The notes under the pieces: model-generated
Seen by the model: only the letters and a program-made list of their open reading frames with translations
Told to the model about the DNA's origin: nothing
Databases searched by the model: none
Shown: in pieces, positions 8,888 through 19,447 of the stretch
Position numbering within the stretch: the first letter of the stretch is position 1
Layout: every line of letters starts with the position of its first letter
Made by a program: the position numbers and the translations under genes
Virus genome (UHGV): UHGV-0213393
Origin: a virus
DNA length: 64,000 nt
Strand: one strand, 5' to 3'

Positions 8888-9925
8888 TTACCAGAGTTTT
8901 GCCGCGTACATCGTTTGTGTGAATGTGTACCCATAGCGTTCTTCAACGCTTTTACCGTATTTTTTCCTGGCTTCAGTAAGGCGGATGCCTGTCAGGTCAT
9001 CGCCGGAGGCAATCATAACTTCCAGTAGTTCCAGGTCCATTTTATCCAGCCTTGCCATTGCATCTTTAGCCTCTTGAATTTTCCGGCTAACGATCTGGTG
9101 TATGGCTGGATCGGCTTCGGCCAGCATTTTATCTGATTTGTTTTTTAAACTCTGATTGCGGATATCAATGTTTCTCAGGATATATGACTTCACGACATAG
9201 CTTGGCTGCTGCTTTTCCAGATCACGAACCCGATAAAGGTCAAATTCGCCGAGAAGTCCGCACGGAAGCGGTTTAATGCCAGTGTAAATGGTAAGGGTAC
9301 GGCGCTCACCAACGTTGTTAACAACGGGAATCTCTGTGTTTGCTTTTCTTGCAAAGATCAGCGCACCGTGCGCACCCACTCGGAAGCGTGAAAGTCCATT
9401 GTTGCCCTCGATATTGGTGGTAATCACCACATCGGTATAACCTTCTTTTCTTGCGCGGTATACCTCGCCCTCACGTTCAGCGGCGAAGAATCTGCGTTCT
9501 TCTTCAAGCGCACCGACAACCTGTGAAAATATCCTGTTTTTCATGCTTTTCTTTATAGTTTTATCGTATTTTTTCAGCAGGTCTTCGCGCGTAAATGTTC
9601 TCGTTGTGGTTGCGCTTTGCATAACGATATGCGTACTCTGATTAGTATCCTCAACAATGAATGGGATCGGTAAATAAACCGACTCAACAATGTTTGAGGC
9701 TTTGTCATCATCCTTGCGACACAGATCAACAAAGGCTTTCCATTCGGCTATGCATTTTTCAGCTTCTTCTAATACAGCCGGATCATGTGTTAATGCAACA
9801 TGGCGAAATTCCTCGCCAACATAACTGGTATCATGGAAAACAGAGTTTGCGACCACCAGCTCTTTCCACCGTTCAGCGGTTTGCAGGAACCGTTTGTACT
9901 CATTCTCGATCGACTTCTTACTCAT
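8888..9925 (-). CDS. hypothetical protein; candidate C1-type repressor by synteny only
   Basis: Start chosen at MSKKSIENEY with RBS AGGA; sits between terminase and the lox/cre module, where P1 carries c1; operator-like motif in its own promoter. Confidence 0.5.
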   Translation of the reverse strand: MSKKSIENEYKRFLQTAERWKELVVANSVFHDTSYVGEEFRHVALTHDPAVLEEAEKCIAEWKAFVDLCRKDDDKASNIVESVYLPIPFIVEDTNQSTHIVMQSATTTRTFTREDLLKKYDKTIKKSMKNRIFSQVVGALEEERRFFAAEREGEVYRARKEGYTDVVITTNIEGNNGLSRFRVGAHGALIFARKANTEIPVVNNVGERRTLTIYTGIKPLPCGLLGEFDLYRVRDLEKQQPSYVVKSYILRNIDIRNQSLKNKSDKMLAEADPAIHQIVSRKIQEAKDAMARLDKMDLELLEVMIASGDDLTGIRLTEARKKYGKSVEERYGYTFTQTMYAAKLW

Positions 9926-9940
9926 TATTCCTACTCGATT

Positions 9941-9958
9941 TAGTTTTCTAACATAAAA
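9941..9958. promoter_or_regulatory. operator-like motif copy in promoter of the 8888..9925 gene
   Basis: tagttttctaacataaaag just upstream (minus strand) of the start codon. Confidence 0.5.
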
Positions 9959-10121
9959 GTCCTGTGACAAATTTATGCTGAATAACAAGGTGAGTAAAGG
10001 ATAAAACCGCTTTTTTTTGATTGTTCCTATTAGAAAATGTAACCAGGAACAGCTACCGCATGGCTGACGGATTTGCGAAGTGATCTGGTCGGTGTTTTTT
10101 TTGGGAAAAAAGTCCTGATTT

Positions 10122-10155
10122 CTAACTTTAAATAATTGGCATTATTTAAAGTTAG
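10122..10155. other. lox-like recombination site (13-bp inverted arms, 8-bp asymmetric spacer)
   Basis: ctaactttaaata-attggcat-tatttaaagttag; arms resemble loxP ATAACTTCGTATA; about 150 bp upstream of the Cre-like gene. Confidence 0.65.
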
Positions 10156-10306
10156 GCTATAATCTCCAGTAAACAGGTAGTATTGACAAGGATGAAAAAT
10201 CATGCCTCGAATCAAAGGCTTGAATTTTGAAAATTAACTTATAACTACCCTGTCAGTTTTCTATTTTTCACGTAGCGTTATCTGTATATAGAGGTTTAAT
10301 AGTTTC

Positions 10307-11335
10307 ATGGGTGAACTAGTTATCTCCGGCGGTTCTGGTGGTTTTCTGCGCGATATTGGCACCGAATACCAAGAAGCTGCAAAAAACTTTATGCAGTTCA
10401 TGAACGACCAGGGAGCTTATGCCCCAAATACGCTTCGAGATCTCCGTCTGGTGTTTCATTCCTGGGCGCGGTGGTGTAACTCGCGCCAGCGCCCCTGGTT
10501 CCCGATTACGCCGGAAATGGCCCGCGAGTATCTTCTCCAGTTGCATGAGGCCGATCTGGCTTCGACCACCATTGATAAGCACTATGCCATGCTTAACATG
10601 CTGCTTTCGCAATGTGGCCTCCCGCCGCTCTCGGACGATAAAAGTGTGTCTCTGGCCATGCGGCGCATCCGGCGCGAAGCGGCAACGGAAAAAGGCGAGC
10701 GAACAGGCCAGGCTATACCGTTGCGGTGGGATGATCTGAAATTGCTCGACGTATTGCTGTCCCGTTCCGAGCGGCTGGTGGACCTGCGCAATCGGGCGTT
10801 TCTCTTCGTGGCATACAATACCCTGATGCGTATGTCAGAAATCTCGCGCATCCGCGTCGGAGATCTGGACCAAACAGGTGACACTGTAACGCTGCATATT
10901 TCACACACGAAGACCATCACGACCGCCGCCGGACTTGATAAGGTGCTTTCTCGTTGCACTACCGCCGTACTGAACGACTGGCTGGAGGTGTCCGGACTTC
11001 GTCAACATCCGGACGCGGTGCTATTCCCGCCAATACACCGCAGTAATAAGGCCAGAATCACGACAACTCCCCTTACTGCACCTGCAATGGAGAAAATATT
11101 CAGCGATGCCTGGGGGTTGCTGAACAAACGAGATGCCACGCCGAACAAGGGAAGATACCGGACGTGGACAGGCCATAGTGCGCGTGTTGGTGCGGCAATT
11201 GATATGGCTGAGAAACAGGTGTCAATGGTCGAGATCATGCAGGAAGGCACATGGAAAAAGCCCGAAACACTTATGCGATATTTGCGCCGTAGCGGGGCAT
11301 CCGTTGGTGCAAATAGTCGCCTGATGGATTCCTGA
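10307..11335 (+). CDS. cre: Cre-like tyrosine site-specific recombinase
   Basis: Blocks SVSLAMRRIRRE, RNRAFLFVAYNTLMRMSEISRIRVGDL and WTGHSARVGAAIDMAEK...MQEGTW match Cre as recalled; catalytic Tyr in LMRYLRR. Confidence 0.9.
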   Translation: MGELVISGGSGGFLRDIGTEYQEAAKNFMQFMNDQGAYAPNTLRDLRLVFHSWARWCNSRQRPWFPITPEMAREYLLQLHEADLASTTIDKHYAMLNMLLSQCGLPPLSDDKSVSLAMRRIRREAATEKGERTGQAIPLRWDDLKLLDVLLSRSERLVDLRNRAFLFVAYNTLMRMSEISRIRVGDLDQTGDTVTLHISHTKTITTAAGLDKVLSRCTTAVLNDWLEVSGLRQHPDAVLFPPIHRSNKARITTTPLTAPAMEKIFSDAWGLLNKRDATPNKGRYRTWTGHSARVGAAIDMAEKQVSMVEIMQEGTWKKPETLMRYLRRSGASVGANSRLMDS

Positions 11336-11353
11336 ATTAATTTTCTAACAACC
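11335..11353. promoter_or_regulatory. operator-like motif copy
   Basis: aattaattttctaacaacc directly after the cre stop. Confidence 0.45.
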
Positions 11354-11407
11354 TTTTTAGACAGTGCATTTTAATGTAAAGTACCCTCGCCTATTGCGGA
11401 GGGTACT

Positions 11408-11752
11408 TTGCACAATCGTATTACGGAATCAAAACGCTTCACTGTTGACGGTTACACCATAACCTTCACTGCGGGCGTTAAGCGAGACCAGGCGGTCGTG
11501 GTGTTCGGTGTTATGACCGGACTTGATGCCGTTCCCGTGTTTACCCTCGAAAAAAACTGGCGAAATCTGGAGGAAGCTGAACGCTACGTCCGGAAAGTAA
11601 CCGTCATTGCTGCTGAAAAACTCCTGGCCCACTATCAGGAAAATTATCGCGCTATGACCGAGAAAATTAACCATGTTTTCACTCGCCCCACCAGCGGCTT
11701 CATTGCTCCTGATGCAAATGCCGGGCGCTATCCGGCAAGGGGGCGCAAATGA
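11408..11752 (+). CDS. hypothetical protein
   Basis: 114-aa ORF. Confidence 0.5.
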   Translation: MHNRITESKRFTVDGYTITFTAGVKRDQAVVVFGVMTGLDAVPVFTLEKNWRNLEEAERYVRKVTVIAAEKLLAHYQENYRAMTEKINHVFTRPTSGFIAPDANAGRYPARGRK

Positions 11753-12237
11753 AAACTTACTACCCATCCCTGAACTGCTATCCAACCACTAATCCTGAGC
11801 TGTCAGGGAAACTTCTGTCCCTCCTGGCTGATAGTCCTGATGAATGGCATAAGCCTGGTGATATCAACACACAGTTCCCTGAGTACGGGTGTATCCGCAC
11901 CCGAAATGAGCTGAAGAACCTCATTGCTCACGGTTTTGTCCGTCACCGTAGCGGGAAAGGCTATCAGTTGGCTATCCCACAAGGAGAGGCAAGAGAACTC
12001 TTTGGCTATCGAGAAAGCCAGACGCAAGCGCGGGTGATCGCAGAAATTATCCGTAATGGCAGCGTCTATGCCCGCAAATTCTGGCTGTCTGGCGGTGGCG
12101 ATGCATCACAGTTCTTGCGTGCTGTGCGATCGCTGGAGGAACAAGGTGTAATCGAGAATACCTGCGTCTCCGTTCCGACCGCTCCGCATATCAAACGCCG
12201 GATTTATACATTTACCCGGAGAGCTAAAAAGCAATGA
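11749..12237 (+). CDS. hypothetical protein
   Basis: 162-aa ORF, coupled to neighbours. Confidence 0.5.
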   Translation: MKTYYPSLNCYPTTNPELSGKLLSLLADSPDEWHKPGDINTQFPEYGCIRTRNELKNLIAHGFVRHRSGKGYQLAIPQGEARELFGYRESQTQARVIAEIIRNGSVYARKFWLSGGGDASQFLRAVRSLEEQGVIENTCVSVPTAPHIKRRIYTFTRRAKKQ

Positions 12238-12728
12238 TTAACGTGAAAGTGAAACGCCTTCATCCGGCGGCAAAACTCCCCGTTTACGCCACCGCCGGAT
12301 CGGCGGCGATGGATTTTGTTGCTGTTGAAATAACGCCTGGTATCGATAGCAATGGCGCTATTTCCTCAAGCTGGTGGGTGCATACCGGCCTCGCTATGGC
12401 GATCCCTCCTGGCTGGTGTCTGAAACTTTATCCTCGTTCCGGATTGGGCTGCAAAAAGCATACGCGCCTGGCTAACTGCGTAGGAATTATCGACGCCGAT
12501 TATCGCGGTGAAATCATGGCAAAACTGATTACAGATCCTGGTGGTGAAGGTGTTTGCCTCAAGCCTGGAATGGCGGTCATGCAAGGCATTTTTGAGCGTG
12601 TTGAACCGGTATCGCTGGTAGAAGTTGATGAACTCGATGAAACAGAGCGAGGTGCTGGTGGCTTTGGTAGCACATCGGAAGACCGCATTGAAATCAAGCG
12701 TACACCGCTTCAGTACGAAAAGTTTTAA
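12234..12728 (+). CDS. dut: dUTP diphosphatase (dUTPase)
   Basis: Motifs AGSAAMD, PRSGLG, GIIDADYRGE and RGAGGFGSTS correspond to the conserved dUTPase motifs. Confidence 0.9.
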   Translation: MINVKVKRLHPAAKLPVYATAGSAAMDFVAVEITPGIDSNGAISSSWWVHTGLAMAIPPGWCLKLYPRSGLGCKKHTRLANCVGIIDADYRGEIMAKLITDPGGEGVCLKPGMAVMQGIFERVEPVSLVEVDELDETERGAGGFGSTSEDRIEIKRTPLQYEKF

Positions 12729-12742
12729 GTAGAGGAAAGATT

Positions 12743-13429
12743 ATGGCCAGCACTTTTCAGGTGTTCCCCAAATACAAAAGCCACAGCATCATTCGGGCAT
12801 CGAAAATCAAAGATATTGTTATTGTCGGCGAAGCTTATGCGCCCATTTTTGGCAGTATCGAAGTCGTGGAGCCAAAAGGAATGACGCTTCGTGTTGATGG
12901 TGTGTTCTTGGAAAAATTCCGACCGCAAATAGGAGGATATCTCGTCACTGCTGAAAATGGCTATCTGGTCTATGTGCCAGAGAAAGCATTTGAAAAATGC
13001 TATAGCCGGGTTAACGACGCCTCCGAAAATGGGGTATCGCTCAGCATTGAAGGTCACAATGGGGTGACATTCATTACAGCCAGGGACGTAACTATTTCTG
13101 CTGGCGGTATCGCTACTCTACAAGAAGAAATCGACCTTGAAGCAGCCGACTTTTCTGACGCGCTGATGTGGCTGAAGGATGGCAAGAAAGTTGCCCGGCG
13201 CGGGTGGAATGGCGAAAACCAATTCTGCTGGCTGGTTCCAGACAAACAGGGCGCTTCAAGACTAACCCCTATAAAACATGCCATCAATGGAGAGCTTGAA
13301 ATCAATTTCGACTCTCCTCTTGCTCCTTATGGTACGCATTTCGCTTTGAAAAATGCACAAGGTGTAGTTGTTCCGTGGGTGCCTTCAGTTGGCGACCTGC
13401 TGGCCTGTGACTGGTTTGTTGTGGAGTGA
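12743..13429 (+). CDS. hypothetical protein
   Basis: 228-aa ORF with RBS ggaaag; C-terminal LMWLKDGKKVARRGW segment; no confident assignment. Confidence 0.5.
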   Translation: MASTFQVFPKYKSHSIIRASKIKDIVIVGEAYAPIFGSIEVVEPKGMTLRVDGVFLEKFRPQIGGYLVTAENGYLVYVPEKAFEKCYSRVNDASENGVSLSIEGHNGVTFITARDVTISAGGIATLQEEIDLEAADFSDALMWLKDGKKVARRGWNGENQFCWLVPDKQGASRLTPIKHAINGELEINFDSPLAPYGTHFALKNAQGVVVPWVPSVGDLLACDWFVVE

Positions 13430-13435
13430 TTTAAC

Positions 13436-14233
13436 GTGGAAAATACCAAGAACATTCAATATCGCCTGCGTAACGGCCTGCTGGTGGATGTAAACGATGA
13501 TATGTCCCTGCCCTTTGCCACCATTGAGCGAACCATCCTTACATACCTGGGTTTAGACGAAGAGTTAGATAGTGAGAATGGCATTGCTATCTGGCGTGAC
13601 GGAAAAACGGGAGTCAGACGTTTTATTACGGCAAGAGGCATTCAGTGCACACAGGAAGAATTGTTTGAACTGGCGCAGTCTTATGGATGCATCGCGTTAG
13701 ATCCCCTGCATGACCCAGCCATAGCGCAACAACTCATTCGAGAGCTGTCGCTTTCGGTCACGCCAATAATCTTCCGCCAGGGAACCTTAACCGGCACATG
13801 GCGTGTAGAACGCATCTCTAAATATCAGCCATATAATATCCATTTGAACGGCACTATTACTGGTGTGGATCAACCAGTAGCAGGTGAAAACAAAGACCTG
13901 GAACTTGCAGTAATGATGGCTGCTTGTCGCGTGCTTGGCCTGGGCAAGCAGATGTTTATCCATTTCCCAAACGGCGCGGAAGGCGAAGTAGAGCTGATTT
14001 CCTGCGACTTTTCCTTAACCTGGATGCTTGATGAATTCCTGGACAAAACAGTATTCCGTGCTGAAGAACTGGATATGTATGTCACCTCAAGTATTCCTAA
14101 TGACGTGAAAGTTGAGGCCATCGCTACAGCCAGGGCGAAATGCCGTGCGGCGATTGCAGAACAGGCCAAAGAAGAACAGTCCGATGAAGTCGCGGCAGAT
14201 GTGGAAGCAGAGGATGCTGATGCTGACGCCTAA
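13436..14233 (+). CDS. hypothetical protein, acidic C-terminus
   Basis: 265-aa ORF. Confidence 0.5.
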   Translation: MENTKNIQYRLRNGLLVDVNDDMSLPFATIERTILTYLGLDEELDSENGIAIWRDGKTGVRRFITARGIQCTQEELFELAQSYGCIALDPLHDPAIAQQLIRELSLSVTPIIFRQGTLTGTWRVERISKYQPYNIHLNGTITGVDQPVAGENKDLELAVMMAACRVLGLGKQMFIHFPNGAEGEVELISCDFSLTWMLDEFLDKTVFRAEELDMYVTSSIPNDVKVEAIATARAKCRAAIAEQAKEEQSDEVAADVEAEDADADA

Positions 14234-14285
14234 AAGCAAGAAATTAGCTGGCTGACAGCAGAAAAAATCATTGAGTGATAGTAGG

Positions 14286-14314
14286 AAGCCCGCTTGGTTG
14301 AGCGGGCTTCTTTT
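14286..14314 (+). terminator. rho-independent terminator
   Basis: agcccgc-ttggttga-gcgggct plus tcttttc. Confidence 0.6.
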
Positions 14315-14694
14315 CAAATATTGGAACCATATAGTTCACGTAGTTTTTCCGCTACTGAAGATACGGGGATTTCACCAGTTGCAGCCCCCACCGCAAGTTC
14401 CACCAGCACGGGAGAATCATATACCTGTATACCGTTACGGCGTAGAAATAGCAGCGCACTGTTTAGCGCGGTACGCTTATTGGCATCATTGAATATATGC
14501 CCTCTCGCAGTAGCCACCAGGTAGGTTGCGGAGACTTCGAAAAGGTCGGTGATCTCTTCGTAGGCAACTCTGGCCTGAACTCTCCCGATAATGGCCTCTG
14601 CCCTACCCGGATCTGACATTCCCGGCAGGCCGCCGTAGCGGTTTATATTCGCATCATGAAGCGCAATAAGTTCTTCCGGTGATATATGCCTCAT
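14314..14694 (-). CDS. doc: Doc toxin (Fic-family kinase, death on curing)
   Basis: Sequence [17 protein letters not shown]...[19 protein letters not shown] matches P1 Doc as recalled, including the Fic-type motif. Confidence 0.95.
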
Positions 14695-14915
14695 TATCGG
14701 TTAACCAGTTCCTTGTTGGTGGAGTCCAGGGTGTCAAACAGGGATGCAAATTCAGCATCCAGCGCCGCTTTTTTGTAGGCTTCGAAAGTAGCCTTGCTGA
14801 CAATTACTGCTGGCTCACGGCCTCTGCGGGTGATTTCAACCTCTTCCCCAGCTTCAACATTGTTGAGCACTTCAGAAAGGTTGCCACGCGCGGTACGGAA
14901 GTTAATGGATTGCAT
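14694..14915 (-). CDS. phd: Phd antitoxin
   Basis: [32 protein letters not shown]... matches P1 Phd as recalled; stop overlaps doc start. Confidence 0.95.
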
Positions 14916-15059
14916 AAACACCTCGTGTACTCGTTATGTGTACACAATTATAAACTTCACAGGCATAAAGCACCAGCACTTTGCAGCTTAAATCACCGGA
15001 CAATCGTCAAACTCCCCACTTCGGGCATCATTGATGAAATGATGTGGTCACGCCAAACT

Positions 15060-15524
15060 TTAATCTTCAAGGTCTGCTTCTGATACCACTGTATAACCCA
15101 GAAATATTTTAATCTCATTCCACAATCCCATGATCTTGCCTTCATACTCTGATGGTTCTCTTACAATTACTGAATCTGGGGGAGTGTGAGCCTCTAATTC
15201 GGTTATGATCTCATGGCAAAGATTATGTTTGTAATATTGTTTTAGTTGCTCTCGAATAGGTTTTGGCGCACTTTCAATAGTTTCTTTTGCGGCATTTAGT
15301 GAAAGAATTATATTACTTGCGTCATTAACATCCCAGTCTGATCCAGCTTTTCCTGTTGCTATTTTATTTGCCCTATCAGCAAAGTTTATCAATGCTTCAC
15401 TATAAAATTTTTCCTTATCGAATAATCCAAGCTTTTTACTTGTGCGCAAACTAATAAAAGCAGCTATTGCTGACCCAAATGCCGCAATAGCTGATGCCCA
15501 ATCGGGATTGATATGAAGAAACAT
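15060..15524 (-). CDS. hypothetical membrane-anchored protein
   Basis: 154-aa ORF with N-terminal hydrophobic segment; AT-rich. Confidence 0.5.
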   Translation of the reverse strand: MFLHINPDWASAIAAFGSAIAAFISLRTSKKLGLFDKEKFYSEALINFADRANKIATGKAGSDWDVNDASNIILSLNAAKETIESAPKPIREQLKQYYKHNLCHEIITELEAHTPPDSVIVREPSEYEGKIMGLWNEIKIFLGYTVVSEADLED

Positions 15525-15608
15525 GCTATCTCTACCTAATGCCAGATCTTTAACCTAGAAATATTGTATCAGTAGTTATGGCTTTGCCACCAGTAATGCG
15601 ATTTTTTC

Positions 15609-16502
15609 CTAGTTGTCATTGCCCCCTACCAGCGGCAATAAAGCCCTGGCCATCTTATGAACCAATAGTGCATCAATAATGCCAAGCGTATGCCCCGGGT
15701 TAATGTTTAATGCCGCCTCAAGGTGACACCTTTCCAGGCCACTTTTCTCGGCTTGTTTATGATGATCTGGCGTAATAACGTCGCCCAAAACACGGCTAAT
15801 TCTTTCTCGTAATTGCTGGGTGCCAGCACACTTGATAGCTGTATCGTGGAGACGGTTAACCAGTTCGCGGTAAACATGCGGCTTAATTCGTATACGTTCG
15901 CCGGGGACGCCATTTCCTGGCGCTTGCTCCGAACTATCCAGATAGTTGCCAGCCTCGTAAGCTACCCGCAACCAGTGCATGAATGTTTCCGCAGACACAC
16001 AACCGCAGTCCACATCGATTTTCCCGCGTTGCAGTTCCAGCCATTGCTCAAAATCTAACTTGTAAGCCTTACTTTCAAGTTCATCACCATTGAACTCGAC
16101 TTTCTGAGACGCTATGCGAGCTGCTTCATACTGTTCACGAGTGACAACCGATGTGAACGCACTGCGATCAAAGTCACTGATATCGCAAATAATGCCATCA
16201 AATGAATAATTCTTTGATGGTTGGTAATTTTTGTAGCGCGTATCAAAACGAACCGTAGCCCAACTACAACCTGCCAGCGGAATGGATAGATAGCAAAAAT
16301 CTTTTCCATCAGGCCATCCAGCCCCCTTAGATAATTCCTTCACTAAAAAGTCAATCAGTGTCATTCCGTTACCATCCTTGCAAGGCGCTAACGCTATTTT
16401 GGCAAGCGCCAATACTTCATCTGCCGTATATCCAGCACCGTGACCATACATTTCAATACGGGAAATAATCTCTGATATACGCTCTTTAGTGATTCTGGTC
16501 AT
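15609..16502 (-). CDS. hypothetical protein sharing a YRELVN...QLRER module with the 26169..26780 protein
   Basis: 297-aa ORF; internal segment KPHVYRELVNRLHDTAIKCAGTQQLRERI parallels APHIYRELVNALRDIAAVYHGTEQLRERL. Confidence 0.55.
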   Translation of the reverse strand: MTRITKERISEIISRIEMYGHGAGYTADEVLALAKIALAPCKDGNGMTLIDFLVKELSKGAGWPDGKDFCYLSIPLAGCSWATVRFDTRYKNYQPSKNYSFDGIICDISDFDRSAFTSVVTREQYEAARIASQKVEFNGDELESKAYKLDFEQWLELQRGKIDVDCGCVSAETFMHWLRVAYEAGNYLDSSEQAPGNGVPGERIRIKPHVYRELVNRLHDTAIKCAGTQQLRERISRVLGDVITPDHHKQAEKSGLERCHLEAALNINPGHTLGIIDALLVHKMARALLPLVGGNDN

Positions 16503-16708
16503 AGCTGTATTTCCTTACATGATTCGCCTTTACGACACACGGCTACACGGTTATCTCGTACATTAACCACGGTCACCGTTCCGTCATCGCATTGAGTGAC
16601 TATTACAAGATTCTCTGATTCAGTTACACAGTGCTGCTGTTCTCCAGCCATTGCAGCCGGAGGAGCAAATAGCGCCAGAACAAATGCCAACCTTAAAAAA
16701 TGCTTCAT
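16499..16708 (-). CDS. small secreted protein
   Basis: 69-aa ORF with signal-peptide-like N-terminus ending AMA and cysteines in the mature part. Confidence 0.5.
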   Translation of the reverse strand: MKHFLRLAFVLALFAPPAAMAGEQQHCVTESENLVIVTQCDDGTVTVVNVRDNRVAVCRKGESCKEIQL

Positions 16709-16770
16709 TTGGCCTTATCCGTTATCAAAATTGGAATATCCGTTATCACGAGCGTGATATCCGTTATGAA
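16709..16770. promoter_or_regulatory. direct repeats plus palindrome, candidate operator
   Basis: Three copies of tatccgttat and palindrome tatcacg-ag-cgtgata upstream of the 69-aa ORF. Confidence 0.4.
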
Positions 16771-16787
16771 GGGGGTAATAAAATTAC

Positions 16788-16964
16788 TTAGTAATACCCT
16801 CCTCCAGACTGAACGCCAGCGATAACCCAGGCCGCAAGAAGCGTAAAGCCACTCCCAGCTCCACATTCCATCGTTCCCCATTCAACACCACCAGCCAGCA
16901 AAACAAATGAACCGCAAAGGCATACAAACAAAAAAGTAATCCAAAATTTCTTTCTGTTTTTCAT
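16788..16964 (-). CDS. small glycine-rich hydrophobic peptide (58 aa), absent from ORF track
   Basis: Hand translation MKNRKKFWITFLFVCLCGSF...GGGYY; start overlaps upstream stop (TAATG). Confidence 0.4.
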   Translation of the reverse strand: MKNRKKFWITFLFVCLCGSFVLLAGGVEWGTMECGAGSGFTLLAAWVIAGVQSGGGYY

Positions 16965-17263
16965 TATGGTTGACTCCAGTTATCTTCAATAACAATACTT
17001 AACCTCTGAAGCCATTCTGCTAATTTCAGCATGGCTTCTCTTTCGCTTAAACCACGCGGGAAATCATCAAGTGCAATTGTTGGCTTGAAGTTCCCAAAAT
17101 TATCCATTTCAACGGTCAGATTTTGCTCCAGCACGGTATTCCTTACGCGGCTATTGTGCCGAAGCAAATATACTGAACGTGATTTATTGTTTTTGTGGTC
17201 GAACGTATATTCGGTAAGTATCATCTGGCTTCCGCCATAATTATTACCGCGCCACATAATCAC
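16964..17263 (-). CDS. hypothetical protein
   Basis: 99-aa ORF coupled to downstream small peptide. Confidence 0.5.
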   Translation of the reverse strand: MIMWRGNNYGGSQMILTEYTFDHKNNKSRSVYLLRHNSRVRNTVLEQNLTVEMDNFGNFKPTIALDDFPRGLSEREAMLKLAEWLQRLSIVIEDNWSQP

Positions 17264-17269
17264 TCCGTG

Positions 17270-17671
17270 TTAATAAGAAAAGTAGACCGTTGCGACTCTG
17301 TTATATTGATCGAACGAAATAGCATTTACTTCATAGCTGGTGGGTATCTTTTCGCCAAGAATGTAACCAGGCCATGATTTCCACGGAATTTCTGCTCGTT
17401 CGTCATGCCACACTGCGCAACCAAGAGAACCGACCGTCTCTCCATGCCGTTTTCCGCAAGTAACAAAGCCTATATTTGGCTTATCTTGCGTGACTGCTAC
17501 AGTGGTGGTATTTGCGGATGCATTGATTGCAGTGCGTTGCTCCTGCTCGCTTGCGGCTGAGGCACTAATTGCTGCCGTTGTTGCGGCGGTTGCAACAATA
17601 ACCGATGCATGTGATAAATGGCAGGCAGATAACATTGCCAGAAAAATAATAGTTCTCCGAAATTTAGCCAT
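17270..17671 (-). CDS. secreted hypothetical protein
   Basis: Start chosen at MAKFRRTIIFLAMLSACHLSHA (signal-peptide-like); Thr/Ala-rich linker then Cys-containing domain. Confidence 0.5.
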   Translation of the reverse strand: MAKFRRTIIFLAMLSACHLSHASVIVATAATTAAISASAASEQEQRTAINASANTTTVAVTQDKPNIGFVTCGKRHGETVGSLGCAVWHDERAEIPWKSWPGYILGEKIPTSYEVNAISFDQYNRVATVYFSY

Positions 17672-17847
17672 TGATTTAACCTTTATTGCGAACATATTTA
17701 GCTGTGTGTTGCCGATGTGCGGAGATTTTCTTATATCAATTCCACGCGCTCTGCTAACGAGCAATCCAAATAATCTTCCGGATGCTTGTCGGTGTTATTA
17801 ATGATGCGAATCCTCAAATCTTTTCACCTTTGAGGATAAGTTGCAGG

Positions 17848-18913: not shown

Positions 18914-19447
18914 TTAGTTGTAGCCAATCGGATTAACAGCAACAATAACGCCATCCGCGAACAAATCTTTAATGAGGTGTTCGCTCGGCTCGCCTTTTTC
19001 GTACTCTTCAATAAGGTAAGTGTCTCCATCTTCATTGATATAAACAGGAAGAATGGAACCGTTGATGAAGTAGGTTCCGTTGTTATCGAGGATTTTTGCC
19101 TCGGCGATTTGTTTTTTGGTAAAACGATCTTCTTTTTTCAAAGTTGCCATATCTGTTTCCTTATGTGGGTTAATTTTATTGTGTAGCTTCCTGAATGGGG
19201 TCCACACTATATCGATATACAGTTCAACTAACGGTTCAAATACTTTCCCCATTAGAACAGTCACTAATATTGAGGCTATTGGTATCAGCAACACGAAAAA
19301 CAGAATGATAAACAGCAATTCTATTGCTCTACTCTTTCGCGGATATTCTTTTCTGAATAAAGTGGGCATTTCCTCCCCATTAAATGCGTCAATGATTTCT
19401 CCAGTGTTTTGCGCTGCACCGGAATTATCTTTAAATCCTTCTTTCAT
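18914..19447 (-). CDS. hypothetical membrane protein
   Basis: 177-aa ORF with central hydrophobic helix; AT-rich. Confidence 0.5.
   Translation of the reverse strand: MKEGFKDNSGAAQNTGEIIDAFNGEEMPTLFRKEYPRKSRAIELLFIILFFVLLIPIASILVTVLMGKVFEPLVELYIDIVWTPFRKLHNKINPHKETDMATLKKEDRFTKKQIAEAKILDNNGTYFINGSILPVYINEDGDTYLIEEYEKGEPSEHLIKDLFADGVIVAVNPIGYN

Follow-up and report, generated by a model that had tools for sequence, protein, structure and literature searches.

Six co-oriented open reading frames (ORFs; genes A–F) on the minus strand of a D6/P1-like phage-plasmid, all within 15060-17764, are real genes of uncharacterised function that recombination has assembled; they do not amount to a single dedicated system. 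The window, i.e. the whole 64,000-nucleotide stretch that was analysed, shows 100% identity to Escherichia marmotae pRHBSTW-00605_3. An initial annotation had placed six small minus-strand genes here; the ORFs were indeed found at the claimed places, and comparison with orthologues gave dN/dS values of 0.07-0.5 across genes A–F, demonstrating purifying selection on all six. The overall reading that we consider probable is that these genes are accessory modules of a phage-plasmid, recombined within a known variable region and acting separately, with an envelope role as a guess for some of their products and with a repeat array that is most likely a recombination relic.

Variable region 8 and the mosaic origin of genes A–F

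Small accessory genes form a long leftward run here, and the interval makes up its distal part, which ends at the phd-doc addiction module (Table 1). The initial annotation described the cluster as downstream of phd-doc, whereas it lies upstream in the sense of transcription. Region 8, which corresponds to pmgT...humD in P1, is one of eight highly variable regions of P1-like phage-plasmids (PMC9603915), and the P1 counterparts (pmgT to humD) are non-essential in P1 (PMC10695390). Genes A–F belong to this region, as they lie directly upstream of phd-doc in matching orientation on a P1/D6-like plasmid prophage, and otherwise similar elements differ in gene content at this place. The earlier description of a phage-plasmid accessory region is therefore borne out both by the identity of the phage-plasmid and by the published variable region. 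In P1, region 8 has the same position directly upstream of phd-doc and the same orientation, and a PmgU-like C-terminal domain is shared by gene B. Apart from this part of gene B, the genes differ: humD, lxr and hot are missing here, gene A occupies the position that humD has in other relatives, and the D6-type backbone, in which cre lies near doc, sets the plasmid apart from P1. Relatives hold other small membrane proteins in the slot next to phd-doc. No P1 C1 operator was found within the window.

Table 1. Features of the interval and of the adjoining addiction module, in window coordinates
Feature	Coordinates	Strand	Remarks
phd-doc addiction module	14314..14915	-	conserved anchor, 3′ of the variable genes in the sense of transcription
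Gene A, 154 aa	15060..15524	-	PHROG 1779 (function unknown); GC 38%
Promoter-like site B/A	15563..15590	-	GTGGCA, 16 nt, TG-TACAAT; consensus match only, weak
Gene B, 297 aa	15609..16502	-	predicted cytoplasmic mosaic protein; start overlaps gene C stop (ATGA)
Gene C, 69-aa precursor	16499..16708	-	PHROG 20764; predicted Sec signal peptide
Three 21-bp direct repeats	16716..16778		cores TATCCGTTAT at 16716, 16737 and 16758
Palindrome TATCACG-AG-CGTGATA	16744..16759		junction of repeats 2 and 3
Gene D, 58 aa, 19% Gly	16788..16964	-	start overlaps gene E stop (TAATG)
Gene E, 97 aa	16964..17257	-	PHROG 1258; predicted cytoplasmic
Gene F, 133 aa	17270..17671	-	PHROG 8805; predicted exported

Sliding identity profiles resolved the interval into a patchwork from at least three lineages. 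Gene A and the 3′ half of gene B are ∼100% identical to one lineage and gene F is ∼100% identical to another, while genes E, D and C, together with the 5′ half of gene B, show 55-100% identity to a third. Among 5,426 complete E. coli genomes, not one contained ≥80% of the A–F set, let alone all of it. As a unit the cluster thus falls away: its genes are not co-inherited, and the set is complete only in this plasmid. In agreement, the genes are unequally spread in the plasmid collection, with 11 records for gene A, 45 for gene D (DNA match), 63 for gene F and 168 for gene C, and an 801-bp query over genes C, D and E matched 488 records, mostly across gene E alone. Tight coupling was seen in two pairs only, E/D and C/B, each with overlapping stop and start codons. 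We propose that genes A–F would act as separate accessory modules, with E-D and C-B as the sole tight couplings. No promoter was found within the cluster save the weak site before gene A, which could give gene A its own transcript, and promoter-like sites in the region were fewer than in shuffled sequences. This is already known to be a hypervariable recombination region of P1-like phage-plasmids, and the 'cluster' is a one-off combination.

The individual genes have relatives in other phage settings. Gene E is a common nin-region gene of lambdoid prophages and a bona fide member of that region, where it lies between the replication genes and NinB/NinE/NinG/Q. Its product has 97 residues (ATG at 17257) and not the 99 given earlier, and its modelled fold is predicted to be a four-strand sheet with a C-terminal helix. 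Relatives of gene F are found in the early region of Mu-like prophages, between a MuB-like gene and GemA/Mor. The accessory genes of the nin and Mu-early regions of temperate enterobacterial phages resemble genes A–F in being small, mosaic and mostly unknown; here, however, the element is a plasmid prophage whose virion is of the P1 type, and the regulatory setting differs.

Gene B is itself a mosaic. Residues 181-295 match PHROG 21459 (E = 3.9e-69), and homology to P1 PmgU covers the last 115 aa; the P1 sequence was aligned with the C-terminus by eye. The N-terminal modules are common to Ea-type phage proteins. The 297-aa ORF is where it had been placed, with a long start that is backed by homologues. 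RefSeq gives only 252 aa, a start that is probably too short because the homologues begin MTRITKERISEI...

Predicted envelope-directed products and their possible role

The suggestion that the interval encodes small envelope-targeted proteins held in part. Genes A, C, D and F appear to encode conserved membrane-anchor or Sec-type signals, which persist while the sequences diverge; the 97-aa and 297-aa proteins of genes E and B, on the other hand, are predicted to be cytoplasmic. All export and topology calls rest on sequence rules. For C and F, the Sec features retained in divergent homologues comprise a basic n-region, a hydrophobic h-region and a small-x-small site.

Gene A encodes a single predicted N-terminal transmembrane helix (residues 9-26) of conserved hydrophobicity. 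Because basic residues come after this helix, the product is predicted to be anchored in the inner membrane with its C-terminal domain on the cytoplasmic side. The helix is kept in homologues, consistent with the membrane-anchored protein described initially, and gene A is 99% identical in E. albertii p06-3542.

The 69-aa product of gene C had been called a secreted Cys-containing protein, and a predicted signal peptide and four invariant Cys agree with this. Cleavage is predicted after AMA and before GEQQHC, leaving a mature domain of 47 aa. Relatives carry three different signal peptides ahead of this domain, and a small-x-small motif before GEQ (AMA, AIA, VTA) is kept in four different signal peptides. 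Gene C is under purifying selection (dN/dS 0.18-0.28), has no annotated feature in the source record and is missing from the NZ_CP173593.1 table too. A homologue with 71% identity is the 71-aa secreted protein of IncI2 conjugative plasmids (e.g. WP_001360344.1), which shares the four Cys and the mature domain (dN/dS 0.28) and accounts for the 118 of the 168 gene C plasmid records that are conjugative plasmids. The IncI2 protein differs from gene C in its signal peptide and in having no triple repeat upstream, and its gene sits just before VirB-type secretion genes, whereas gene C is part of a phage operon.

The gene F product starts with a putative signal peptide, followed by a linker rich in Ala, Thr and Ser; its C-terminal domain of 65 aa is conserved and has two invariant Cys. 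This agrees with the secreted protein described earlier, and the length is corrected from 134 to 133 aa (ATG at 17671); coordinate 17764 belongs only to the longest TTG-started ORF. A signal peptidase I-type site (SHA↓S or AQA↓S) was recognised in 23 homologues. Assignment of the family to the lipoproteins was considered and rejected, as it would require a family-wide lipobox, [LVI][ASTVI][GAS]C, and the one seen, LSAC, is confined to the window allele and one homologue (P0009), and the others have LSAS or no Cys there; members of the family appear generally to be cut by signal peptidase I. A structure model of the gene F product reached a pLDDT of 46, too poor for use. The invariant Cys in C and F are of the kind expected for periplasmic disulfides, and Sec may carry both products to the periplasm, where disulfides would stabilise them.

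Phages can block superinfection with small, non-essential envelope proteins, including T4 Imm and Sp, T5 Llp, Cor (phi80/N15), HK97 gp15 and P1 Sim. A signal peptide, a lipobox or one to two transmembrane helices direct these proteins to the inner membrane, periplasm or outer membrane, and their genes often lie within variable regions. The products described here are likewise small, phage-encoded and, as predicted, envelope-directed; no sequence, profile or fold similarity to the listed proteins was detected. Superinfection exclusion or another envelope role is a plausible guess. Our best guess, put forward tentatively and at clearly less than even odds, is that the envelope-directed products bar other phages or DNA from the infected or lysogenic cell, or modulate a host membrane protein; the parallel with T4 Imm/Sp or HK97 gp15 would be one of logic rather than of sequence. 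Searches of genes A–F against Pfam, PHROGs, NCBIfam and PADLOC gave no match to an exclusion, toxin/immunity, surface-modification or defence family. Similarly, PDB sequence searches (A, B, E and F) and fold searches (E) found no similarity to a known exclusion or defence protein. Its nin-like and Mu-early relatives suggest that the operon may be expressed only in the lytic cycle, in which case protection of the lysogen becomes less likely.

Gene D, a small hydrophobic peptide

Gene D is a real gene under selection and is already catalogued. It was initially presented as an unannotated Gly-rich hydrophobic peptide; the peptide is real and hydrophobic, and it is present in the source record, in RefSeq (WP_157942684.1) and in UniProt (A0A7W3G131), with the exact sequence on 68 contigs. 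Codon-level conservation of the 58-aa ORF had been set in advance as the check that could overturn it; when run, it gave a dN/dS of 0.25-0.28. It is extremely improbable that chance open frames account for some of the small ORFs, gene D in particular. Gene D does lack a PHROG, Pfam or NCBIfam match and has few homologues, as such a frame might, yet the ORF is intact in relatives at 72-78% protein identity, the indels that set apart a more distant 54-aa version keep the frame, and the other two same-strand frames contain stop codons. Together with the dN/dS, these observations led us to reject a chance frame. The family is tiny, with 7 clusters among 5.8 billion proteins. Its few database homologues are mostly on ∼86-95 kb contigs, which is the size of P1-like plasmids, and no counterpart was found in the chromosomal prophage loci examined.

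The product has a basic N-terminus (MKNRKK), a strongly hydrophobic helix at residues 7-26 and then a Gly-rich second hydrophobic stretch, with Cys15, Cys17 and Cys34 conserved among intact homologues. We propose that it inserts in the inner membrane via the conserved N-terminal helix, in the form of a small hairpin or of a cleaved hydrophobic peptide. Two familiar classes were considered and rejected. A holin is disfavoured by the C-terminus, QSGGGYY, which has no charged tail, and by the neighbours, which are genes E and C with no adjacent endolysin or lysis gene. A class II microcin is disfavoured by the basic, hydrophobic, Sec-type N-terminus, and no exporter or immunity gene was annotated or detected nearby.

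It is very unlikely that gene D encodes a Sec-exported glycine-rich bacteriocin-like peptide, cut after LAGG, with immunity provided by a neighbouring gene. The signal-peptide-like N-terminus, the A-G-G ahead of the possible cut and the Gly-rich, hydrophobic character of the remaining 32 residues, which are the variable part of the protein, would all suit such a peptide. However, there is no double-glycine leader, ABC exporter or immunity-type gene nearby, a Sec-exported peptide would halt in the Gram-negative periplasm, and conservation is highest in the N-terminal helix, as would suit a membrane anchor more than a leader that is thrown away.

The overlap of the gene E stop with the gene D start, seen in the window and in the four relatives read (L003-L006), raises the question of whether the two genes make up a module, with D as a small, toxic, holin-like or abortive-infection-like peptide of the membrane that E controls as an antitoxin controls its toxin. 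The small size and high hydrophobicity of gene D and the selection upon it agree with this, but we regard it as quite unlikely: in the lambdoid nin regions examined gene E occurs without D and next to unrelated soluble proteins, many other plasmid records, including P1-like plasmids, match E and not D, the gene D family is very small, no lysis gene is adjacent, the charged C-terminal tail is missing and a PADLOC scan was empty. A type II toxin-antitoxin pair was rejected, since obligate pairing fails in the lambdoid loci examined and in many P1-like plasmids.

The repeat array before gene C

Triple direct repeats and a palindrome had been reported in the middle of the cluster. The repeats are real and have an exact 21-bp period; their cores have no other exact copies in the 64 kb. 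Read as mRNA they are 3 x ATAACGGATA, with the last core directly next to the gene C ribosome-binding site. The palindrome is present too but incidental, being not conserved in relatives: the site reads TATCACTCTCGTGATA in L005 and TATGACTTCAGTGATA in L007, and by our own estimate chance alone would give dozens (∼40) of palindromes with 7-bp arms per 64 kb. The RNA fold of the palindrome and leader was not significant (z = 0.46), 16700-16800 contains no sigma-70 promoter or intrinsic terminator, and the repeat region gave no Rfam match and no stable fold. Promoter, Rfam and fold scans thus lend the repeat and palindrome no look of a promoter, terminator or structured RNA element.

At three other loci (L011, L014 and L018) the 21-nt unit is coding, and within nin-region phage proteins it specifies a linker of heptads, xITDSxx. 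Because the same sequence encodes this linker, the repeat is probably a recombination relic, and homology between the window and L007 begins at the edge of the array. We propose that the xITDSxx linker sequence was left at a recombination junction and now forms the 5′ leader of gene C.

That the array is instead a working control element for gene C and not a mere relic is rather unlikely, though it is the least unlikely of the alternatives. It could offer a DNA-binding protein a series of sites on one helix face (21 bp being two turns), or the three A(N)GGA leader motifs could serve a CsrA-type translational regulator or ribosome standby. ACGGA occurs at -56, -35 and -14 from the start codon (0.29 expected per 90 nt), the last motif touches the ribosome-binding site, and the array accompanies gene C even where the upstream gene is different. 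The cores are also conserved beyond neutral expectation, which speaks against a relic: the spacers are 38% diverged between the window and E. albertii p2RM9973 with the cores intact (0 of 10 substitutions in 24 core positions, P = 5e-4), and other variants have spacer-only changes too. However, gene C does without the array in E. albertii p06-3542 and on IncI2 plasmids, and therefore does not need it; the same sequence is plain coding DNA elsewhere; the promoter, Rfam and fold scans were empty; and the block of 98-100% identity that holds the array extends over the signal-peptide codons as well, as expected of a recent recombination tract. CsrA-bound leaders typically present several A(N)GGA motifs in hairpin loops, one of them at the ribosome-binding site; the three ACGGA motifs here lie outside loops, and the leader has no significant structure. 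A broader reading, less likely than the control element by itself, is that ATAACGGA x3 is a heptad-linker repeat captured at a recombination junction and reused to control gene C, with C and D blocking phage or conjugative DNA at the envelope; control in that case may come from binding of a protein or a CsrA-type regulator to the array, or from ribosome standby.

Returning to the recombined accessory modules that we favour, the result mainly clears the record on gene D, on the region and on the 'cluster'. The occurrence of gene C in both phage-plasmids and IncI2 plasmids is a concrete case of gene flow between two kinds of element, and the conserved repeat before it is a small, cheap case in which a former coding repeat may have turned into a regulatory site. 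The slot beside phd-doc repeatedly gathers small membrane and periplasmic proteins, and is therefore a reasonable site to screen for exclusion or host-modulating factors.

Six genes in a D6-type accessory region

The initial annotation described six small minus-strand genes (A to F), with an array of direct repeats between D and C. All six open reading frames are present, comparison with orthologues indicated purifying selection on each, and the anatomy given was largely right. D was conserved at the codon level: its frame is intact in relatives with 72-78% identical proteins, a more distant 54-aa version is separated by in-frame indels, dS was 0.3-0.7 compared with a dN of 0.08-0.18, and stops occur in both other same-strand frames. 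D is a gene, and was not unannotated as first believed, since it already has RefSeq (WP_157942684.1) and UniProt (A0A7W3G131) entries; its exact sequence was found on 68 contigs. C is a gene without a feature in the source RefSeq record, and is also missing from the NZ_CP173593.1 table. E and F stood as genes with corrected lengths: E, given as 99 aa, has 97 aa from the family start MWRG (GGAG 7 nt upstream), and F, given as 134 aa, has 133 aa from the start MAKFRR. The 297-aa length of B held and, because homologues start MTRITKERISEI, the RefSeq start (252 aa) is probably 45 codons too short. Stop and start codons overlap in two pairs only, E-D (TAATG) and C-B (ATGA). In two 82-aa D variants from Logan assemblies (P0004 and P0006), the open frame runs on into the repeats in the NGY frame. 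Set against the normal D sequence, both seem to have lost 1 nt close to the 3' end, which may reflect assembly error or natural frameshift alleles.

A 4.65-kb segment spanning the cluster was 100% identical to Escherichia marmotae plasmid pRHBSTW-00605_3 (NZ_CP056699.1), a P1-like plasmid prophage of 94 kb that is non-mobilizable and whose layout (cre near doc) agrees with the described D6-like branch (PMC6799933). Next to doc we found plus-strand genes and cre, and not pdcA, pdcB, lpa or pacAB; this organisation is D6-type. The P1 C1 operator (ATTGCTCTAATAAATTT) was absent from the whole 64-kb window with up to 3 mismatches allowed. The six genes are the final part of a run of small, nearly all co-oriented minus-strand genes, which begins near a divergent ref gene ~8 kb off and ends in phd-doc. 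Since the run finishes with phd-doc, the cluster is transcriptionally upstream of phd-doc and not, as initially stated, downstream. A survey of 77 P1-like phage-plasmids counted this slot (pmgT to humD in P1) among eight highly variable regions (PMC9603915), and the P1 genes of the slot that were tested in a CRISPRi screen, a set that left upfM outside, were non-essential (PMC10695390). Within 1.2 kb that carry no entry in the plasmid's gene table there is a minus-strand ORF of 177 aa and 37% GC; its residues 38-76 form a long hydrophobic segment, and it may be a further membrane-protein gene of the same operon.

Features of the cluster and of compared loci. Unprefixed coordinates refer to the window, L-numbers to the compared loci; records are matches in the plasmid collection, with the type of search
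Feature	Coordinates	dN/dS	Records (search)
Gene A (154 aa)		0.27 (just two substitutions)	11 (protein)
Gene B (297 aa)		0.25-0.51	
Gene C (69 aa)	16499-16708	0.18-0.28	168 (protein), 118 conjugative plasmids (two examined, IncI2)
Gene D (58 aa)		0.26-0.28	45 (DNA)
Gene E (97 aa)		0.07-0.27	
Gene F (133 aa)	start 17671	0.16 (just three substitutions)	63 (protein)
C+D+E, 801-bp query			488 (DNA), mostly over E only
Genes next to doc	9280-14314		
GC comparison, gene A	15000-15400		
Promoter-like site before A	15563-15590		
B codons before RefSeq start	16365-16502		
40-nt patch in C	16600-16640		
Direct repeats	16716, 16737, 16758		
Palindrome	16744-16759		
177-aa ORF, minus strand	18914-19447		
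C homologues, IncI2 plasmids	L009 2992-3243; L010 576-791		
Small membrane proteins around E	L002 5361-5735, 6043-6165; L007 2898-3284, 2603-2908; L006 1985-2359; L003 4613-4735		
Relatives of F	L232-L234 4001-4411; L235 4001-4411		
Coding 21-nt repeat	L011 130-180; L014 53-103; L018 7276-7326; L216 4141-4191		

Patchwork origin of the cluster

Identity profiles, gene content and gene spread revealed a patchwork rather than a functional unit. Sliding identity profiles pointed to three sources. In A and the 3' half of B, identity to E. albertii p06-3542 was ~100%, compared with 0-50% over most other parts. E. coli pMUB-MIN14-1 was ~100% identical over F and the gap preceding it; across E, D, C and B its identity varied between ~100% and, in parts of B, next to none. 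A Salmonella Concord plasmid, which lacks F entirely, matched the 5' part of B at 80-98%. Gene content around E differed in every relative examined. Of the 5,426 complete genomes of E. coli, none contained at least 80% of the six-gene interval at a single location; the best match took in F, E, D, C and one half of B, at 97%. Spread in the plasmid collection was very unequal between genes.

The relatives of each gene lie in different settings. E (PHROG 1258) is a standard nin-region gene in lambdoid prophages of Klebsiella, Erwinia and others, located between replication genes and NinB/NinE/NinG/Q; a D-like peptide never followed E in the lambdoid prophage loci examined, where unrelated soluble proteins were found instead. 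In relatives without D, the gene following E encodes 124-128 aa with an extended hydrophobic region that probably forms two transmembrane helices; close to it is a membrane peptide of 40 aa. Small membrane proteins thus turn up repeatedly beside E, a slot that seems to collect them. A 101-aa protein with two hydrophobic segments also occurs around E in relatives. Homologues of D formed seven clusters among 5.8 billion proteins, mostly on contigs of ~86-95 kb, which is P1-like plasmid size; those with a name were from E. coli. For F (PHROG 8805), relatives at 53% identity lie in E. coli Mu-like prophages, in the early region, between a MuB-like gene and GemA/Mor, and one at 44% identity lies on a Cronobacter contig, ~1.7 kb from an Ivy-type lysozyme inhibitor gene. 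B has a PmgU-like domain at its C-terminal end. A had 22 representatives among 1.8 billion; its GC content is 38% compared with ~49% nearby, it is preceded by the sole promoter-like site (extended -10) in the cluster, and it takes the place of humD beside phd in a handful of plasmids. We read this low GC, promoter-like site and humD replacement as the signature of a separately acquired gene.

C (PHROG 20764) is shared with IncI2 plasmids, and in two of these its homologues, with a signal peptide different from that of the window, lie just upstream of VirB-type secretion genes. C is a concrete case of gene flow between phage-plasmids and conjugative plasmids. Where the mature protein begins, a patch of 40 nt (VTESENLVIVTQ versus TKENEHPFIVIQ) was only 55% identical to relatives, with 98-100% in its flanks (signal-peptide codons and repeat), and looks allele-swapped or diversifying.

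The repeat array before C

The triple direct repeat was borne out, as TATCCGTTAT occurs at a 21-bp period in the sole exact copies in the window. In the mRNA sense, three copies of ATAACGGATA lie between the D stop and the C start, the last abutting the ribosome-binding site. The palindrome reported here arises at the junction of two repeats and is not conserved, and many of its size are expected by chance in 64 kb; it is not a meaningful element. The array accompanies C on 10 IMG/VR contigs. It does so too in E. albertii p2RM9973, which has a gene other than D upstream and shares homology with the window from the array edge onward. It is absent before C in p06-3542, where the D stop overlaps the C start, and in IncI2 plasmids.

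On other contigs of enterobacterial temperate phages, one of them with a lambdoid nin-like context (L018), this 21-nt repeat forms part of the coding sequence of small proteins. There it contains ATAACGGAT and specifies (M/V/L)ITDSxx, a heptad linker lying between two modules of the protein (e.g. LEQQE-MITDSQP-VITDSAG-VITDSAERGEGWIEW; PHROGs 343, 9174 and 26870). ATA-ACG-GAT, a run of rare codons, is common to nearly all coding copies, a hint of recent spread or of DNA-level constraint. In the linker frame the window reads FITDITL-VITDIPI-LITDKAK-stop, with no usable start codon, and the simplest reading of the array is a linker repeat remaining at a recombination junction. Variation within the array argues against pure neutrality: the window and p2RM9973 differ there at 10 positions, all of them among the 26 of the spacers, with the 24 of the cores unchanged (P = 5e-4), and other variants are likewise altered in spacers only. 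No promoter- or terminator-like site was found at the repeat or palindrome, Rfam gave no match at the repeat, and its RNA fold was not significant (z = 0.46). We consider a control role unlikely, and a leftover linker repeat remains our preferred reading. Three ACGGA motifs in the window and three CAGGA motifs within ~50 nt in the leader of the IncI2 C homologue (40-90 nt upstream) prompted the idea of CsrA, for which the C leader is a candidate binding site.

Predicted location and possible role of the products

Signal peptides and membrane segments were predicted by sequence rules. The description of the products as envelope-targeted applies to A, C, D and F, which carry export or membrane signals, and fails for B and E, where a search of both proteins found no hydrophobic segment. 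C has a basic n-region, a hydrophobic core, a predicted cut at AMA/GEQQHC and four cysteines, all invariant among relatives, in which three other signal peptides precede the same mature domain. In F, a signal peptide and a linker rich in Ala, Thr and Ser precede a conserved domain of 65 aa, in which two cysteines are invariant. A lipoprotein family was considered for F and rejected; because the LSAC lipobox of the window allele is not kept (other alleles have LSAS or AQA/S), the family is predicted to be exported, with lipidation allele-specific at most. D begins MKNRKK. Residues 7-26 then form a strongly hydrophobic helix (Kyte-Doolittle 2.4), and a second hydrophobic stretch is rich in Gly. 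The N-terminal part of D is the most conserved, at the nucleotide level too. Since a single N-terminal helix precedes basic residues in 18/18 aligned family members, the 125-aa domain of A should face the cytoplasm.

Pfam, NCBIfam and PADLOC gave nothing above threshold for the six products, PHROGs matches were to families of unknown function only, PDB sequence searches with A, B, E and F returned no matches, and the structure model of F (pLDDT 46) was too poor for use. Superinfection exclusion, a toxin/immunity pair and host-surface modification remain candidates drawn from location and targeting. Relatives in nin regions and Mu-early regions suggest that expression occurs during early lytic growth, not in the lysogen. 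Such timing would be more in keeping with exclusion of the kind exerted by T4 Imm/Sp or T5 Llp than with lysogenic conversion in the classical sense. An envelope-acting role in exclusion or host modulation is possible, if somewhat doubtful. Overall, the initial interpretation is partly supported, in its envelope targeting and not in its functional unit. The locus is an ordinary, if tidy, case of a known hypervariable accessory region holding uncharacterised phage genes.
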